A stretch of DNA of 37,280 bases from Candidatus Aenigmatarchaeota archaeon (lineage in GTDB: Archaea; Aenigmatarchaeota; Aenigmatarchaeia; GW2011-AR5; JACRAC01). Under the pieces are notes generated by a model. The model did no database searches and was not told where the DNA came from. It worked only from the letters and a program-made list of their open reading frames with translations. The position numbers and the translations under genes were made by a program. The stretch lies in the NCBI GenBank assembly GCA_039091255.1, contig JAWCMQ010000002.1, forward strand, positions 142,126-179,405, written 5' to 3'. Positions 7,227-14,285 of the stretch are shown in pieces (the stretch's first letter is position 1; every line of letters starts with the position of its first letter).

Positions 7227-7450
7227 TTCCACTATTCTAACCGCCCGCTTTTACGCGAAAGCGGCTATTTTCAAGCGGTTATTATTCGCGGAACCGCGAC
7301 AGCCGCAGCTGGCGCGTTTTGAAGGCTAGCATTGGTGTAGGAGATAGTGGGCTGAGCGCGTCGCCGAGGCTTCGCGCGTACACCCCTTCTCCATAACGGG
7401 TCGTCTTGCCCGTACCGCATGTCTATTTTTGAGAGCGGCTTAGGCCTTAG

Positions 7451-7523
7451 TTCGGCGGATGCTATGTCATGGCTGCCCATCGCCAATTTCTCGGCGGCAG
7501 CTATTGGTACCGACGTAGCAACC
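7451..7523 (-). other. ~73-nt insertion in the 3'-terminal 23S region
   Basis: It splits the conserved CUGAAGGCAU|CUAAG segment. Removing it restores the consensus. Confidence 0.55.
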
Positions 7524-7741
7524 TATGCCTTCAGGCCTTATCCGCCATGGCGTAGCTACCCGGCGATGCCCTGTCGGACAACCGGTACACCAGAGGCCAC
7601 GAGAGGGTGTTCCTTTCGTACTTGCCCTTTCTTTCTCTCAGACACCAGCACCTTCGGCAGATATAGACCAAACTGGCTCACGCCGTTCTGAACCCAACTA
7701 AGGTGCCCTTTTAATCTGTGGACCCCAGCACCCTTGGCTGC

Positions 7742-8153
7742 ATTCAGGTCGCGGACGACATTTTGATAATCCGTTACTCTGTTTGTAAGCGGACTATTCA
7801 ACGGCTGATTCTCTCATCGCTTGTGTTGATAATTCGCTTTGGCTACCTACGCAAAAGCGGACTATACACAAACTCGAAATCCAGTTTGCAGTCTCCTCTA
7901 CCCAAGACGAAGAAAGAAGCTATGCAACTTCTATCTTGACTTCGGCAATCTTGCCGCTCTTTAGCTCAGAAGCTACCCAGTATAGTCATTGGCGATAACG
8001 AGCGCTCGCAAGTGCGAGCTATTCGTTCATCGCCTCGTTCTGGGACGTATATCGTCAACGCTAAAGCTAGCAGATTGTCAGGAATGTAGACCACAAACTT
8101 TTGCTTTGCGGTTTGCAAAGCCACCGTGTCGTTCGCCGTCAGCGACTTGCTGC
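7742..8153 (-). other. ~412-nt ORF-less insertion in 23S domain V
   Basis: It lies between CCUGGCUGU and GCAGCCAAGGGUG, downstream of the GUCGCUGUCGGCU segment. A GCAGC direct repeat sits at both junctions. There is no ORF long enough for a homing endonuclease. Confidence 0.7.
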
Positions 8154-8313
8154 ACAGCCAGGTGAGGACCAGCCGACAGCGACGCCGCAACGCGCGGGGT
8201 CGATACGAACTCTCACCCGCCACGACACCATTATCCCCGTGGTAGCTTTTCTCATGTCACAAGCCCCTCTCTAGAGCGCTTTCTTGATGTCCTCGCGGAT
8301 TTCATGCATTCTG

Positions 8314-8350
8314 TTCTTTCCGCAAGTGCTTTCTTTCAAGAAAGGGCTTA
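8314..8350 (-). repeat. family-A module copy (divergent) in 23S
   Basis: Sense TAAGCCCTTTCTTGAAAGAAAGCACTTGCGGAAAGAA, inserted upstream of GAAAAGCTACCACGGGGATAA. Confidence 0.75.
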
Positions 8351-8962
8351 TCTAAAGGAACTTGCGTATCGCTAGGTCACGCTTTCGCGTTTGGATTCCA
8401 CGCTGGGCGGAATCCAATCAATCCGGCTTTTGCCCTTGCACTCTACAGGCGATTTCTGACCGCCCTGAGCCGAACTTAGAGGACCCTTGATACCCTTTCA
8501 AGGGTGTGCCGCCCCAGCCAAACTGCCCACCTGTTGCTGTCTTCCGCTTTCGCGAAGTTAGCAATACAAGAAAGATAGGGCAGTGTTACATTTTCGACTC
8601 CACCTCAACTTGCGTCAAGGTTTCTACGTCTCCTGCCTACGCTATACAACCTCGCTCGTACCACAACAACAGACTGCAGTAAAGCTCAACGGGGTCTACT
8701 CTTCCCACCGAAGGTCTCCAGCCCAGTCCCTGGAACGATAGTTTCACCGAGTTCCAACCCGGGACAGCGAAGATCTAGTTAATCTATCATGCAGGCCAGC
8801 ATTTAACTGGCAAGGGATTACGCTACCTTAAGACCCTCAGAGTTAGGGCCGGCCTACAGCGGGGCATAGGCAGGTTGTAACCCGCTTTCACACACCGCTA
8901 GTGGCCACGATTCATCGGCTATACAAGGCCTTTGGGCTTAGCAGCCGACTGCGTTTCTTAAC

Positions 8963-9082
8963 CGGCGAAAACAACATGTTTTGGCTGCGATCATTTTGCA
9001 ACATAATCGCAGCAATACGTTCCAATTCGATTGAGGCTGCTAATTCGTCAATCTTGTCGGAACTTTCAGGCAGTTTTCGCCG
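8963..9082 (-). other. ~120-nt insertion in 23S carrying the family-B hairpin
   Basis: Closed by cggcgaaaac (8963-8972) and gttttcgccg (9073-9082). It follows GGACUGUUUAACAAA. Positions 8983-9016 are ~80% identical to 16S 12924-12960. Confidence 0.65.
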
Positions 9083-10284
9083 TTTGTTAAACAGTCCGAT
9101 CTCCCTTGTCACTGCGACCTGCCCATCGCTGAGCAGGCACGGCTTGTACCGAAGGTACGCCGCCAATTTGCCGAATTCCCTGGGTTGGATTCTCTCGAAC
9201 ACCTTCGCCTTCTCGGCGAGGGGCACCTGTGTCGGTTATAAGTACGGTCGTCTGGCGCCCTCCCCCATCCCATTTTCATGGGCCCGTGGAATTGCCCGAA
9301 GTCTGCATACGCAAACCTACTGGCGCCTTCACGCGATTCTCGTCACGACGACACTCCTCGCGCTTCGGCGCTTGAACAGCGCGACGGCGCTGCTCGGGCT
9401 ATCCAAGGGCGTTTGGAATAGGTTCTACGGACGCCAGCCGGCGCAGGAATATTAACCTGCTTCCCTTTCCCAGCCGTCCAGTTAGGAGGCCGGTTAGGAC
9501 CGGCTAACCCCCAGCAGATAATCTTTACTGGGGAAACCTCGCCCCTCAGGTGGTGGAGATTCTCGCTCCACTCTATGCTACTCCCGGCAGGATTCTCATT
9601 GCTGACCGGTCCACAGCTCCTTAAAGAGCCGCTTCTGCCCAGCCAGCACGCCTCCCTACCGCCATGCGCTCCTCGCGAAGCGCATGACCCGCAGTCTCGG
9701 CAGACCGCTTAGTCCCGTCCATTTTCAGGGCCGAGAGCCTCGATGGGTCCGCTGTTACGCGTTGTTTAAATGATGGCTGCTTCTAAGCCTACATCCCCAC
9801 TGTCTAAGACTCCTGACTCCTTTCGTCACTTAGCGGCCGTTTGGGGGCCTTAACTGCAGTCCGGGTTCACGCCCTCGCGGATGCCAAAATTACTCCGGCA
9901 CCCTCACTCCCCGCGCATGCCACGGACGTATTCGGAGTTCGACGAGATTGCTGGAAGTTTCCCTCCTTGGCAACCTAATCGGTGCTCTACCCCGCCCGCT
10001 TAAGCGCGGAGGCTGTACTCACGCACATTTCGGGAGGAACCAGCTATCACCAGATTCGATTGGCTTTTGGTGTTCGCAAACAACATTGCTCGGAACTTGC
10101 GAAGGGCAAATTCCAAACAGTTTCGCTGTTTGCGAATTTCACCCCTAGACCCAGGTCACCCCAAAGGTTTGGACCATAACGGGTACCGGCCCTCGAGGTC
10201 GCTTTCGCGACCCTTCAGCCTACCCAGGCCTAGATCATCTGGTTTCGGGTCTCAAACCACTGACTAACGCCCTTTCGGACTCGC

Positions 10285-10333
10285 TCTAGCGCAACCTTTT
10301 CCGCCAGCGCTTTTGCGCCAGCAAAAAGGGCTG
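10285..10333 (-). repeat. family-A module copy in 23S domain II region (core 10296-10333)
   Basis: Sense CAGCCCTTTTTGCTGGCGCAAAAGCGCTGGCGGAAAAGGTTGCGCTAGA, between GCCGTAGCGAAA and GCGAGTCCGAAAGGGCG. Confidence 0.8.
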
Positions 10334-10999
10334 TTTCGCTACGGCTTTCGCCTTGCCAGTGGAATGAACTCCCTGCCCCGTTTTTCAAAACGGACGCCGG
10401 TTTACTCTCCGCTTGCGCGGAGCCTTCGCCGGCTAACTGTAGCTGCCTGGTTTCAGGCTCTTTTCAGCGCGTGTTGCCGCTGCTTTTCAGCTTTCCGTCA
10501 CCGTACTAGTGCGCTATCGGACTTGAGGAGTGTTTAGGATTGGAGGTAGATCCCCCCGCATTCCTACTCCCTATCAAGGGAATAGTACTCTGGATACCGC
10601 CAATCTCACTTCTCGGTTTCGCCTACGAGGCTTTCACTCTCTATGGCAGGGCTTTCCAGCCCACTTCGGCTCGCCGAGCGAGAGAGTGCGACGGTCCAAA
10701 CCCCACATCCCACCGCGCTCGTCGCGCGGCGGTTCGGTTTGTCCTATACGGCTTTCAGTCGCCCTTACTTACCGCATCGCGTTTGCTTTCTCTTCCTGCG
10801 CTTACTAAGATGTTTCAATTCTGCGCGTTCGCCTTCACGGCCAGGTTTAACCCCAGCCTCGAATAGAAGGATGTCCCATTAGGCAATCCGTGGTTCAAAG
10901 GCTGCATGCGCCTCGCCACGGCTTATCCCAGCTTGCCAGGACCTTCATCGCCTCTCAAGCCAAGCCATCCTCCAGACAGCATGGGAGCTAGCTTCCTTC

Positions 11000-11021: not shown

Positions 11022-11226
11022 CGCCGTGCCGACCGGGAAGTCAGCGCGGCTTTACAGCCGCCATGCAAGCAAAGCTTGCGGGCGGTCAGCGATTCGCAGA
11101 GTGCGACCTCCGCCGAACCAAATAGTCAGAGAAACAGCGTGATGAAATCGCCGAAACGATGCCTTCCGCGCTGCACCACACGTGCCTGCCCGCACGAGTG
11201 GGACTCTGACCAGCTCGGTTCTTATC

Positions 11227-11250
11227 ATAACTGCGCGAAGCGCAGCTATT
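11227..11250 (-). repeat. 24-nt spacer hairpin (copy 1), between tRNA-Ala and 23S
   Basis: ataactgcgcgaagcgcagctatt is identical to 11638-11661. It forms a 10-bp helix with a G.U pair in minus sense and an A.C mismatch in plus sense. Confidence 0.75.
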
Positions 11251-11309
11251 AATCCGCGAAGCGGACTACTTCACGCTGCACCATTGTGCAGCGCATCTAT
11301 TTAACTCAA

Positions 11310-11426
11310 TGGACCCGGCGGGATTCGAACCCGCAGCCTCTACCTGCCATGTTTTCCGCCGGCGCTTTTTGCGTCAGCAAAAAGGGCCGTTGCAAGGGTA
11401 GCGATCTTCCATTGATCTACAGGCCC
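11310..11426 (-). tRNA. tRNA-Ala(UGC) with a 44-nt intron at the canonical 37/38 site
   Basis: Sense GGGCCTG TA GATC AATGGAA GATC G CTACC CTTGCA [intron] A GGTAG AGGCT GCGGG TTCGAAT CCCGC CGGGTCC A. It has the G3:U70 alanine identity pair and sits in the usual 16S-23S spacer position. 117 - 44 = 73 nt. No encoded CCA. Confidence 0.85.
11346..11389 (-). repeat. tRNA-Ala intron = family-A module
   Basis: Sense (A)CGGCCCTTTTTGCTGACGCAAAAAGCGCCGGCGGAAAACATGGC. Outer pairs are CGGC/GCCG. Confidence 0.8.
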
Positions 11427-11637
11427 GCATTTGTTCTGCGGGCGCTATTTTATTTAAAGATTCTGAAGATCACTCGGGTTTGGATTTCGAAGGCACGAAC
11501 TTTAGCGCATATCTTGACTGCGCGCAGCGCAGCAAGATGTGCCTGCACACATTTTCGAATTATACTCCATTTCGATTGTTCGCACAATCGTGATCGTGTA
11601 TAATTCGAAAGTTAAGGGTTTCGCTCATCGACCTATG

Positions 11638-11661
11638 ATAACTGCGCGAAGCGCAGCTATT
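11638..11661 (-). repeat. 24-nt spacer hairpin (copy 2), between 16S and tRNA-Ala
   Basis: Identical to 11227-11250. Confidence 0.75.
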
Positions 11662-11882
11662 CGTCCGCCTTTGCGGGCAAAGGTCTAGCATCGCCCCCTC
11701 TTTTGATCAAACTTTTCTTTTAGAAAAGTTTATGGAGGTGATCCAGCCGCACGTTCCCGTACGGCTACCTTGTTACGACTTAGCCCCTCTTGCGGGCATC
11801 TGGTTCGACTTATTCCTGCTCGCCGCATGCTCCGCATGCGGAAGTCTCAGCGTAAGCCTCACCAGAGACCCACTCAATTGGC

Positions 11883-11920
<38 letters not shown>

Positions 11921-11927
11921 GCGAGAG

Positions 11928-12053
11928 ATTTCACAGCAGCAAGCGCATCATTGAGCTGCTACAAAGTGCGCGCAAAGCTCAGTGTCAAGCCTCTACATTC
12001 TTCAACGCTCGCGCTCACCTTTGGCCGGGTTAATCATCTGGCACTTGCCGCTA
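11928..12053 (-). other. ~126-nt insertion in the loop of the GCGAGGG/CTCTCGC helix upstream of TGAATACG (16S)
   Basis: The consensus TCATCA loop is expanded by an unrelated structured segment. It is not family A. Confidence 0.55.
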
Positions 12054-12149
12054 TGATGACCCTCGCTTACTAGGGATTCCGGCTTCATGAGGGCGGGTTG
12101 CAGCCCTCAATCCGAACTAGGCGCAGGTTTAAGAGATTGGCTTCCCCTC

Positions 12150-12226
12150 TCCCGGTCCTTTCCTTTCTCACAGACTCGCGGAAAGTTTTCCGCAAGCGCT
12201 TTCTTTTGTGAAAAGAAAGGGCTTAC
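12150..12226 (-). repeat. 16S insertion with family-A core (12185-12225)
   Basis: It splits GACCCCG|...|GAGGGGAAGCCAATCTC. Core sense is TAAGCCCTTTCTTTTCACAAAAGAAAGCGCTTGCGGAAAAC. Confidence 0.75.
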
Positions 12227-12407
12227 GGGGTCGCATCCCATTGTCCTGCGCATTGTAGGCCCCGTGTATCCCAAGCAAATTCGGGCCATACTGACCTGCC
12301 GTCGCCCACTCCTTCCTCTGATTTAGCACCAGCGGTCCTGCTAGAGTGCACGCCGTCCGGAGACAGCGTTAGCAACTAGCAGCGTGGGTCTCGCTCGTTT
12401 CCTGACT

Positions 12408-12459
12408 ATCTGCAGCCTTGCTGGCGTTTCCGCCAGCGCTTTTCCGCAGAAAAGGGCTG
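12408..12459 (-). repeat. 16S insertion, family A
   Basis: It splits the universal CCTGTTA|AGTCAGG.AACGAGCG. Sense CAGCCCTTTTCTGCGGAAAAGCGCTGGCGGAAACGCCAGCAAGGCTGCAGAT. Confidence 0.85.
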
Positions 12460-12611
12460 TAACAGGACAGCTCACGCCACGAGCTGACGACGGCCATGCA
12501 GCTCCTCTCAGCTTGTCAGGTAAGCCCTTCAGACTGACCCTCATCCTGCTGTCTTTGCTGGTAAGGTTCCCGGCGTTGTATCCAATTAAACCGGAGCCTC
12601 CACCCCTGGTA

Positions 12612-12657
<46 letters not shown>

Positions 12658-12755
12658 CCCCAGGTGGCCCGCTTAACACCTTCGCTCCGACACTGCAGGT
12701 CCTCGTAGGACCTGCAACATCAAGCGGGCATCGTTTACAGCGTGGACTACTGGGG

Positions 12756-12826
12756 TATTTAGGGCCTCTTCATGACTGCGCTGCGGAGTTCTTTTCCGCA
12801 GGCGCTTTTCTTTCAAGAAAAGGGCC
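12756..12826 (-). repeat. 16S insertion, family A core plus 3' extension
   Basis: It splits the universal GGATTAGATA|CCCCAGTAGTCC. Sense GGCCCTTTTCTTGAAAGAAAAGCGCCTGCGGAAAAGAACTCCGCAG...GGCCCTAAATA. Confidence 0.85.
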
Positions 12827-12900
12827 TATCTAATCCCAATCGCTCCCCACGCTTTCATCCCTCACCGTCGGATCTGTCCTAGTGCGGCGCCTTCGCCATT

Positions 12901-12977
12901 CACCCAGAAGGAAATGATGTCATAACTGCGACTATTTGTAATACCATAATCGCAGCAATTTTGCTCACTTCCGTCCG
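12901..12977 (-). other. 16S insertion carrying the family-B hairpin
   Basis: It splits GGACCACCTGA|ATGGCGAAGGCG. Positions 12924-12960 share cataatcgcagcaat and the flanking sequence with 23S 8983-9016. Confidence 0.7.
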
Positions 12978-13006
12978 TCAGGTGGTCCGTTGGAGATTAA
13001 AGGAAT

Positions 13007-13051
13007 GTAAAGTCTTTTCCGCCAGCGCTTTTCGCGCAGCGAAAAGGGCTG
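13007..13051 (-). repeat. 16S insertion, family A
   Basis: It splits GGTAGGGGTAAAA|ATTCCTTTAATC. Sense CAGCCCTTTTCGCTGCGCGAAAAGCGCTGGCGGAAAAGACTTTAC. Confidence 0.85.
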
Positions 13052-13385
13052 TTTTACCCCTACCTCCAACGTACCCCGCACCTCTACCAGTCCCTAGTCC
13101 CGCAGTATCCCTGGCACGCCCTACATTCCAGTATGCGCAGCATCGCTGGAAATTGCGCTTGCGCATATGTCAGCTGCAGGATTTCACCAGAGACTTGCGG
13201 AACCGGCTACGGATGCTTTAGACCCAATAATCGTGAGAACCACTTGTGGCGCGGTTATTACCGCGGCGGCTGGCAACCGTCTTGCCCACCACTTATTCGC
13301 CAAGCTGTTTACACTTGGCAAAAGCCGCAGGAAACCTGCGGCACTCAGGGTCCCCGCCCTCACCATTGCTGGTATTCCCCCAGCA

Positions 13386-13440
13386 CTTCTTGATTTTCCG
13401 CCAGCGCTTTTGCAAAGCGCTAGCAAGCAAGAAGGGCTGT
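13386..13440 (-). repeat. 16S insertion, family A
   Basis: It splits GCGCGAAACCTTCCCAA|TGCTGGGGG. Sense ACAGCCCTTCTTGCTTGCTAGCGCTTTGCAAAAGCGCTGGCGGAAAATCAAGAAG. Confidence 0.8.
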
Positions 13441-13680
13441 TTGGGAAGGTTTCGCGCCTGCTGCGCCCCGTAAGGCCTTGATTCATGTCTCAGAATCAAT
13501 CTCCGGGCTATCACTCTCATGACCCGCACCGATTATCGCCTGGTCGGGCATTTACCCCGACTACGAGCTAATCGGCCGCAGCCTCATCCTTGGGCCCCTC
13601 AGGTTTCAGCAAGGGTGCGTTCTGGCAACCCTTTTGGAGCTCGCATCGCGTTGGCGTTGGAAGCTCGCTTGCTTCACTCT

Positions 13681-13711
13681 TTCTGCCAGCGCTTTCTCCC
13701 AGAAAGGGCTG
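13681..13711 (-). repeat. 16S insertion, family A core (V2 region; true limits uncertain)
   Basis: Sense CAGCCCTTTCTGGGAGAAAGCGCTGGCAGAA. Confidence 0.65.
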
Positions 13712-14285
13712 TTTCCAGCCTCCCTCACCTATGGGGTATTGAGCCCACGTTTGCGGGTGTATCCCCCACCCAAGGGTAGATTAGCTACGTGTTACTGAGC
13801 AGTGCGCCGAGGTCTTGCACCTCTCGACTCGCATGGCTTAGCCGGACCCTGATAGCAGTTCTCTCCGGCGGGATCAACCAGAATTTCGGGTTCGCACTTT
13901 ATTCTAACTAATTTTGCGAAGCAAAATTAGCTATTCCGTTATCCCTGCATTTGGTTCGCCGTTCGTGCCTTCATTGCGCGCAAGCAAGCTCGCGCGTTCA
14001 TCTTCGGCTGTATCATAATTGCCCGCTCCAGATTTGCTGGCGGCAATCATTCCACAACCATCATCGCCCCGCCCGAAGGCACAGGCTCGGAAAACAACCG
14101 CAGTCTGCAACGACTTGTGGTTGAAAGAGATAGATAGTGCTATCTAGTCTCTAATCTTTGACGCGCCGCCGATACCAGACGGCAACGCAAATGCGGGATC
14201 TCCGCAAAAGCTCCCCCGCAAGATTCCTGAACCCCCAGCATGCCTTCCCTTTCACGCTGAGCAAGCTATTCATCAGAAGAAAAAG

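Follow-up and report, generated by a model that had tools for sequence, protein, structure and literature searches.

A probable bulge-helix-bulge intron in the 23S rRNA gene of an Aenigmatarchaeota archaeon and its nested box C/D sRNA, predicted to guide methylation of the same rRNA

In Thermoproteales, the bulge-helix-bulge (BHB) introns of ribosomal RNA (rRNA) genes occur at fixed sites, where they take endonuclease-bearing, remnant, and mini forms (Jay and Inskeep 2015, PMC4496867). The large-subunit (LSU) rRNA genes of DPANN archaea contain group I introns that co-occur with BHB introns (Nawrocki, Jones, and Eddy 2018, PMC6125680). BHB introns can also host guide RNAs: the intron of pre-tRNA-Trp carries a two-guide box C/D small RNA (sRNA) in Haloferax and in Pyrococcus (sR50), and a review from 2021 gives tRNA introns as the only intronic hosts of archaeal C/D guides (PMC7994747). 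Here we analyze a 37,280-nt stretch of the genome of a Candidatus Aenigmatarchaeota archaeon (assembly GCA_039091255.1, contig JAWCMQ010000002.1, positions 142,126 to 179,405; hereafter the window), in which the 23S rRNA gene is interrupted by an insert next to the peptidyl-transferase region. We consider it likely that this insert (7742-8147) is an archaeal BHB intron with a 108-nt box C/D sRNA (8066-7959) inside it, which would most likely guide 2'-O-methylation of G2251 and U2438 (E. coli numbering).

The intron itself is one more archaeal BHB rRNA intron, in a lineage (DPANN) that has been little studied for such introns. Like the introns in the 23S and 16S genes of Desulfurococcales and Thermoproteales, it has BHB junctions, for cutting by the tRNA splicing endonuclease and joining by RtcB, it occupies a fixed site shared by endonuclease-bearing, open reading frame (ORF)-less, and mini-hairpin forms, and it is one of several introns in its gene. 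Unlike in those orders, the host is a DPANN archaeon (Aenigmatarchaeota) and the cargo is a box C/D sRNA instead of a homing-endonuclease gene. The new element is the nested, conserved box C/D sRNA, which is predicted to be aimed at the P-loop of its host rRNA. As in pre-tRNA-Trp, a BHB intron contains a C/D sRNA with two guides that target the intron-bearing RNA itself; the differences are that 23S rRNA is the host, that the sRNA makes up only a quarter of the 406-nt intron, and that a long hairpin lies between D' and C'. The sRNA shares with known guides for the equivalents of Gm2251 an element antisense to CUGGGGCGG and a box placed so that N+5 is G2251, although with a G-U pair at G2253 and a duplex of 8 bp it lies at the short end of the range. 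To our knowledge, known Gm2251 guides are free-standing or sit in introns of other genes, whereas this one lies inside the gene of its own target. Eukaryotic intron-encoded small nucleolar RNAs (snoRNAs) are comparable in that a spliced intron releases the guide, whose production is tied to the transcription of a translation-related host; they differ in that the spliceosome takes the place of EndA and RtcB, in that the host is here the rRNA itself, and in that the intron is here probably circular. With the group I introns of DPANN LSU genes the intron has the lineage group, the gene, and domain V in common, but it matches no group I model, lies at another site, and has a BHB junction. A non-exhaustive search of the archaeal rRNA-intron literature did not find the site of this insert, the apical loop of helix 91 (H91; E. 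coli 2534/2535), described, and a full-text search with incomplete coverage found no publication linking rRNA introns with C/D guides, methylation guides, fibrillarin, or L7Ae.

A preliminary description made from the sequence alone had placed a 412-nt insertion at 7742-8153. The insertion is real, but its true extent is 406 nt. The alignment to Rfam model RF02540, which had been proposed for mapping the site onto E. coli numbering, spans the insert and leaves 407 nt unaligned in the loop of H91; in a local alignment, the loop that holds the unaligned bases belongs to the hairpin CCUGGCUGU-GCAGC...GCAGCCAAGGGU, which is H91. With numbering taken from rrlH, the insertion bond lies between A2534 and G2535. 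The exact junction is fixed by relatives without the insert (14 of 21), because they give the uninterrupted H91 sequence, GGCUGU-GCAGCA-GCAGCC with small variations. In these 14 the region reads CCUGG..GU-GCAGCA-GC..CCAAGGGU and has the length of E. coli 2520-2546. The copies of GCAGC at the two junctions had been taken for a direct repeat that left the boundary ambiguous by 5 nt. Since intron-less relatives read GUGCAGCAGCAGCC, both copies are ordinary H91 rRNA and not a junction duplication, and together with the BHB geometry this removes the ambiguity. The native H91 loop (GCAGCA, 8148-8153) lies outside the insert. When the probable source run is assembled independently, one DNA contig covers 7561-10510 with 0 differences; hence the intron is present in the DNA. 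The intron has a very stable fold (minimum free energy -150.7 kcal/mol, z = -7.1 versus shuffles) and no second copy within its own genome, which comprises 0.7 Mb in 11 contigs and is 83% complete. The DNA runs that match best are hot-spring metagenomes.

At the junction the sequence folds as GGCUGU-GCAG-CA/A-GUCGC ... GCGAC-CUGA-AU/G-CAGCC, where a slash marks a cut. Helix A (GGCUGU with GCAGCC) has 7 bp, helix B has 5 bp, and three of the four pairs in the central helix (GCAG with CUGA) are Watson-Crick pairs. Random junction pairs from the same rRNA form a BHB of this kind at a rate of about 1e-5. The predicted cuts, after the second bulge nucleotide on each side, yield GUGCAGCA/GCAGCC, which is the sequence of the intron-less relatives and equals E. 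coli 2520-2546 in length. The genome encodes both enzymes of the pathway: EndA, with its N- and C-terminal domains in a single 226-aa frame (PF01974, E = 1.2e-27; PF02778, E = 2e-18), and RtcB (PF01139, E = 4.6e-173). DPANN EndA of the alpha4 type, with its specificity loop, has been linked to disrupted tRNA genes (Kaneta et al., PMC5829648), and the single 226-aa EndA fits this type, with a putative specificity loop. In the precursor rRNA, the exon-intron junctions would pair as helix, 3-nt bulge, 4-bp helix, bulge, and helix; EndA would cleave in both bulges (CA/A and AU/G), and RtcB would ligate the exons to the normal H91 hairpin GGCUGU-GCAGCA-GCAGCC and probably also circularize the excised intron. 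The BHB, the introns at the same site in relatives, and the EndA and RtcB genes thus bear out the earlier suggestion that the insert is probably an archaeal rRNA intron without an ORF.

The BHB, the exact restoration of H91, and the enzyme genes are seen directly in this genome, while the absence of the intron from rRNA is seen only through contigs of a close strain. These are Logan contigs, not reads, from total-RNA metatranscriptomes. In a mat metatranscriptome (run X7), the 2286-nt contig X7-24 carries the same variant letters as a mat DNA run (X11). Its listed pieces are 7525-7741, then, after 120 unlisted bases, 8349-8955, and then directly 9083-9789. The exon between the 406-nt intron and the 81-nt intron is 121 nt long, with one ambiguous A, and the lengths in X7-24 match exactly an rRNA without 7742-8147, 8269-8349, and 8957-9083. 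This arithmetic supports splicing with ligation in the close strain. RNA contig pieces break at three other inserts as well (8349, 8955/9083, and 10334). RNA depth is 0 over 7742-7962, and the mat DNA contigs (X11) reach 21 nt into the 3' end of the intron and also cover 8132 near its 5' end. The zero depth is uninformative about a stable circle or sRNA, because the interior of the intron may differ by more than 10% in the mat strain and the data are contigs.

The layout of X7-24 has another peculiarity. The contig starts with the 5' end of the 23S rRNA (10491-10992) and resumes 133 bases later at 7525; this gap has the length expected if the 3' end of the 23S rRNA (about 7321-7741, minus the 74-nt intron) were joined to the 5' end. 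This suggests a circular pre-23S intermediate formed at the BHB of the processing stem, as read from coordinates only, and it could be an assembly artefact.

At least 10 other Aenigmatarchaeota sequences have introns at the same bond, with lengths of 49, 53, 53, 69, 91, 95, 111, 355, 877, and 910 nt among the matches listed. A scan of genome contigs with a degenerate exon-intron pattern gave mostly chance bacterial matches, and only eight archaeal rows of it were used. The same-site introns all start with A after NA and keep the central helix and the bulges; helix B is always paired, with a different sequence in each, and some relatives have a perfect central helix (GCAG with CUGC). The 877- and 910-nt introns contain LAGLIDADG-type ORFs with two motifs (PF14528 in the 877-nt intron, Pfam E = 3.8e-11), and hence a homing cycle operates at the H91 site. 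The same-site ORFs, of 262 aa (L018:702-1487 of genome G014) and 298 aa (L107, the 910-nt intron), with the motifs LLTDGG or LLTDGS and FSADG, are candidates for H91-specific homing endonucleases.

The window intron was itself considered as a LAGLIDADG homing intron, and this was rejected: it holds no endonuclease frame or remnant detectable by Pfam, tblastn, blastn, or nhmmer. Its longest ORFs (73, 81, and 85 aa) run into rRNA, as the preliminary description had noted when it reported no ORF of endonuclease size, and five intron-overlapping ORFs of 41-85 aa have no Pfam match at E<=10. When the 262-aa same-site LAGLIDADG ORF is searched against the window intron with tblastn, the best E is 5.2, and neither blastn nor nhmmer finds nucleotide similarity to the 877- and 910-nt introns. 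The degraded LAGLIDADG frame that could have turned the insert into a conventional decayed homing intron was looked for in vain, by Pfam on the ORFs and by tblastn (E>5).

Table 1. Features of the H91 intron, its sRNA, the predicted targets, and the further inserts in the 23S rRNA gene
Feature	Position	Strand	Details
BHB intron	7742-8147	-	406 nt, apical loop of 23S H91
Exon-1 side of BHB	8150-8159	-	helix A strand GGCUGU (8159-8154); central-helix strand GCAG (8153-8150)
5' splice-site bulge C-A/A	8147-8149	-	predicted cut between 8148 and 8147
Helix B 5' strand GUCGC	8142-8146	-	pairs with 7752-7748
Helix B 3' strand and central-helix strand	7744-7752	-	GCGAC (7752-7748); CUGA (7747-7744)
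3' splice-site bulge A-U/G	7741-7743	-	predicted cut between 7742 and 7741
Box C/D sRNA	7959-8066	-	108 nt including terminal stem CUUUAGC with GCUAAAG
C box GUUGACGA	8052-8059	-	RUGAUGA variant; terminal kink-turn (K-turn) with D box CUGA 7969-7966
D' guide UAUACGUCCCAGA	8039-8051	-	followed by D' box ACGA 8038-8035
Internal hairpin between D' and C'	7990-8034	-	AAUAGC-hairpin-GUUAU module
C' box AUGACUA	7989-7983	-	
D guide UACUGGGUAGCUU	7982-7970	-	
D box CUGA	7969-7966	-	
Predicted D' guide target, P-loop GCUGGGGCGGCAC	8506-8518	-	N+5 = G8514 = E. coli G2251
Predicted D guide target AAGCUACCACGGG	8236-8248	-	N+5 = U8244 = E. coli U2438
23S insert	7451-7524	-	74 nt; poorest BHB fit, helix B with only 2 contiguous pairs
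23S insert	8269-8349	-	81 nt; BHB-type motif
23S insert	8957-9083	-	127 nt; BHB-type motif
23S insert	10067-10137	-	71 nt; BHB-type motif; missed in the preliminary description
23S insert	10286-10334	-	49 nt; BHB-type motif

The sRNA inside the intron has the order terminal stem, C, 13-nt guide, D', hairpin, C', 13-nt guide, D, terminal stem. Between the window intron and the 355-nt intron at this bond in another genus, nhmmer finds a common block of about 100 nt (E = 4.5e-6), and a metagenome scan with this conserved block gave three more H91 introns of 344, 395, and 660 nt (the scan with the 16-base core returned 120 rows, with L183, L205, and L211 as true homologues and L165, L196, and L262 as false positives). 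In the five H91-intron copies the C box reads NNU-GA-C-GA and is followed by 13 nt ending in CGUCCCAGA, a D' box NNGA, a variable hairpin, a C' box AUGA.., 13 nt ending in UGGGUAGCUU, a D box C(U/C)GA, and the terminal stem. The boxes and both spacers are constant across these copies, and the introns otherwise share little sequence. That they stay constant in such dissimilar contexts points to selection acting on the guides as sequences. Covariation is evident in the stems, where the five copies have 94% of cells paired and 12 of 18 pairs are compensatory, compared with 27-41% paired in slid controls. Compensatory changes affect six of the seven pairs in the terminal stem and all six basal pairs of the internal hairpin.

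The AAUAGC-hairpin-GUUAU module, which had been noted before in the insert and in the operon spacers, is indeed present in both, and the short motifs that intron and spacers share are repeat families D8 and D4. Its role went unrecognized at the time: the module is the window's version of the variable internal hairpin of the sRNA. In the spacers, such modules lie at 11223-11257, 11510-11544, and 11634-11668. Repeat analysis also found a motif, AAGCGGACUA.., that is common to the 3' half of the intron (7787-7803 and 7855-7871) and to the operon spacer at 11259-11275.

With less stringent patterns, this two-guide RNA turned up in six further genomes. Of the eleven homologues with this architecture, eight, whose layout was parsed one by one with regular expressions, have identical layouts and three more share it. 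All eight parsed copies can be written as stem-NNU-GA-N-GA ... C(U/C)GA-stem, with terminal stems of 4-7 bp that all differ and are all paired. Their D' box is NNGA, their C' box NUGANNA, and their spacers measure 12-13 and 13-14 nt (18 nt in G025). The internal hairpin varies in sequence but is always a hairpin, of 10-46 nt, except in G212, which has a 2-nt linker instead. All eleven homologues retain GUCCCAG, the core of CGUCCCAGA, which is constant over its full length in the five copies from H91 introns. The two guide cores, GUCCCAG and GGGUAGCU, do not vary and stand in a fixed register to D' and D. Among the 371 genomes of the phylum, the double-guide pattern occurs in 8 and a reversed control pattern in 0. 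Four genomes have the sRNA as a free-standing gene between protein genes (G031, G056, G058, and G212), and two have it in a 23S intron at a different site, some 58 nt before the H91 insertion (G025 and G038). In G212 the sRNA has the compact textbook form of an archaeal C/D sRNA (AUGAUGA, 12 nt, AUGA, UU, UGAUGA, guide, CUGA); its C box is the canonical AUGAUGA, where the H91-intron copies constantly have UGACGA.

The protein partners of such an sRNA are encoded in the genome. Fibrillarin (PF01269, E = 2.8e-88) and Nop5 (PF01798, E = 1.1e-49) are the products of adjacent genes on contig C9, and L7Ae is present as well (PF01248, E = 2.1e-31). Genome-wide patterns for further C/D sRNAs gave 0, 2, and 4 matches, with about 3 in shuffles for the last, and are uninformative. 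The only other genome match of the composite C/D pattern lies outside the window (C4:184340-184425, plus strand) and has a C box UGACGA, a 41-nt insert between D' and C', and a 5-bp terminal stem; this could be another sRNA of this style, or the match could be due to chance.

Both guides have potential partners in domain V. The D' guide pairs with the P-loop GCUGGGGCGG, over 8 bp here and over 11 bp in G031 with its own rRNA, and the D guide is antisense to AAGCUACC(C) in the 23S rRNA over 8-9 bp. In every copy of the sRNA, N+5 of the D' guide falls on G2251. Gm2251 is conserved in bacteria, archaea, and eukaryotes, and in Haloarcula marismortui the corresponding Gm1950 has been assigned to fibrillarin and an sRNA (PMC11542601, including its table 1). 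C/D-guided modification of G2251 has been predicted in three of seven archaea (Dennis et al., PMC4644070), and the plant equivalent, Gm2620, is guided by C/D snoRNPs (PMC11542601, PMC4644070). Together with L7Ae, Nop5, and fibrillarin, the sRNA would guide 2'-O-methylation of G2251 through its D' guide and of U2438 through its D guide. In the precursor these positions lie about 370 and about 100 nt upstream of the intron in the same 23S rRNA, and the sRNA could act on them in cis or, once excised, in trans. Architecture, covariation, and guide register are observed; that the sRNA directs these two methylations is, on this basis, the most likely reading. Because the length of the pairing is not significant against shuffled guides, the assignment of targets rests on the constant guides, the fixed register, and the identity of G2251.

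Several observations weigh against a spliced intron with a functional guide. The BHB is of a relaxed form, with G.A at one end of the central helix and a 3' bulge that shrinks to 2 nt should G7741 and U8154 pair. The RNA contigs stem from a related strain in a different habitat, a microbial mat and not a hot spring, and not from reads of the source organism; the stretch 8148-8268 of X7-24 is unlisted, and the joints shown do not include the one from 7741 to 8148. Neither the sRNA (7959-8066) nor the rest of the intron is covered by any RNA contig, and the contigs show neither a discrete sRNA nor a circle. The C box reads UGACGA instead of UGAUGA, and the spacers are 13 nt long (18 nt in G025), where 12 is usual. 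When guides are shuffled, 43% and 74% of them match 8-bp runs in the rRNAs (5 kb), so that the observed pairing is not significant. The two guides are also complementary to each other over 5 nt (CCCAG with CUGGG), which makes a closed, non-guide fold possible. Finally, we know of no methylation at U2438.

One could argue from some of these points that the intron is spliced but purely selfish, has lost its LAGLIDADG gene, and contains in its core either a K-turn folding element that binds L7Ae or a decayed sRNA that no longer guides. The LAGLIDADG ORFs in same-site introns and the many ORF-less remnant forms among Thermoproteales rRNA introns (PMC4496867) would fit such a history, as would the insignificant pairing, the noncanonical C box, and two guides that can pair together. 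We nevertheless regard it as unlikely, given that the intron has neither protein nor nucleotide similarity to the ORF-bearing introns at its site, that boxes and guides stay constant across dissimilar H91 introns and are retained where the gene stands free in other families and in another order, and that the register puts N+5 exactly on G2251 in all copies. If the module acted without methylation, it could be an RNA chaperone that binds the P-loop and the 2436-2443 strand during assembly of the 50S subunit. Short 8-bp duplexes would suit transient pairing, and both predicted targets lie in domain V, on the transcript that carries the intron and 5' of it; but the complete set of fibrillarin, Nop5, and L7Ae is encoded, and the D' register obeys the N+5 rule at a nucleotide whose methylation is common to all domains of life (PMC11542601), which makes a chaperone very improbable in our view.

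The remaining alternatives concern the insert as a whole. Some archaea have large inserts in their rRNA, and the RNA data do not come from reads of this exact organism, so the insert might be a lineage-specific expansion segment that persists in the mature ribosome, or else an intervening sequence whose excision without ligation leaves a fragmented 23S rRNA. There is little to recommend either: the RNA contig reaches 7741 and continues at the exact exon length without the insert, inserts at this single phosphodiester bond range from 0 to 910 nt in close relatives (among the matches listed), and the BHB sits exactly at the junctions. The retained expansion segment, named in the preliminary description as a finding that would overturn the intron, thus fails on X7-24, which aligns to the predicted junctions and omits the insert. 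A self-splicing group I or group II intron deserves almost no credence. Group I introns do occur in the LSU genes of Woese-, Pace-, and Micrarchaeota at 1923, 1931, 2500, and 2593 (PMC6125680), but position 2534 does not appear in the table of sites in that study, introns at the H91 site can be as short as 49 nt among the matches listed, and Rfam has no matching family. The group I/II candidate was rejected on the last point, as there was no match at the gathering threshold, nor at E<=10 with lax filters, where the intron alone yielded only a chance match to HIV_FS2 (E = 0.85).

For a box C/D sRNA nested in a spliced BHB intron, one can go a step further and propose that the guide for Gm2251 is delivered by an intron of its own target 23S rRNA, that in Aenigmatarchaeota the gene for this sRNA has relocated between a free-standing position and two or more different 23S introns, and that transcription, modification, and splicing are physically coupled. 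We put this forward tentatively, as a proposal that falls a little short of an even chance. If it is true, archaeal rRNA introns can carry useful genes, and a useful cargo would explain the persistence of an intron without an ORF. It would also be a natural case in which transcription, modification, and splicing of rRNA are coupled in cis, and it would correspond, in a prokaryote, to intronic snoRNAs and, on the scale of rRNA, to the guide in the tRNA-Trp intron. Genomes of about 0.7 Mb would then retain a minimal but essential set of guide RNAs.

The H91 intron is part of an rRNA operon of archaeal type on the minus strand (Rfam). The LSU gene spans 7321-10996 and has 3676 nt, in line with the earlier estimate of about 3.65 kb, against a model of 2987 positions; the small-subunit (SSU) gene spans 11733-13884 and has 2152 nt against 1478. 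With the intron-less relative G006 (LSU of 2948 nt) as reference, there are five further inserts in the 23S gene (Table 1), and the predicted BHB cuts at their homology-defined junctions give back G006-like conserved sequence. Four of them had been recognized before, and all four exist with somewhat refined coordinates, while the fifth had been overlooked. Three tRNAs in the window, all of them intron-bearing, were found by Rfam only; ARAGORN detected no tRNA in the window. Rfam found no match for RNase P RNA in the window, and in three relatives this RNA lies directly downstream of the LSU gene.

Relative to three relatives, the 16S gene (11733-13884, minus strand) has about nine inserts of 10-80 nt with provisional boundaries, and those with BHB-like junctions include 13375-13440, 12899-12978, and 12408-12459. 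A family of mini-introns (sense ACAGCCCUUUUU..GCGCUGGCGGAAAAG) is repeated in the 23S gene, the 16S gene, and the intron of a spacer tRNA (families D1-D7), at sites that include 10296-10336, 11352-11392, 12791-12831, and 13014-13054. A 53-nt member of this family occupies the H91 site in two other Aenigmatarchaeota (L055 and L112), and the family seems to be mobile among sites and genes. Relatives have a second hot-spot for introns in the 23S gene near 8206 (roughly E. coli 2476), 58 nt 5' of the H91 insertion, which holds inserts of about 80-370 nt in G002, G027, G025, G038, and others, and is empty in the window. Across the order, the LSU gene ranges from 2948 nt in G006, which has no introns, to 7373 nt in G001. 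Introns thus stretch the rRNA genes of this group to 2.9-7.4 kb, which affects primers, binning, and rRNA-based phylogeny.

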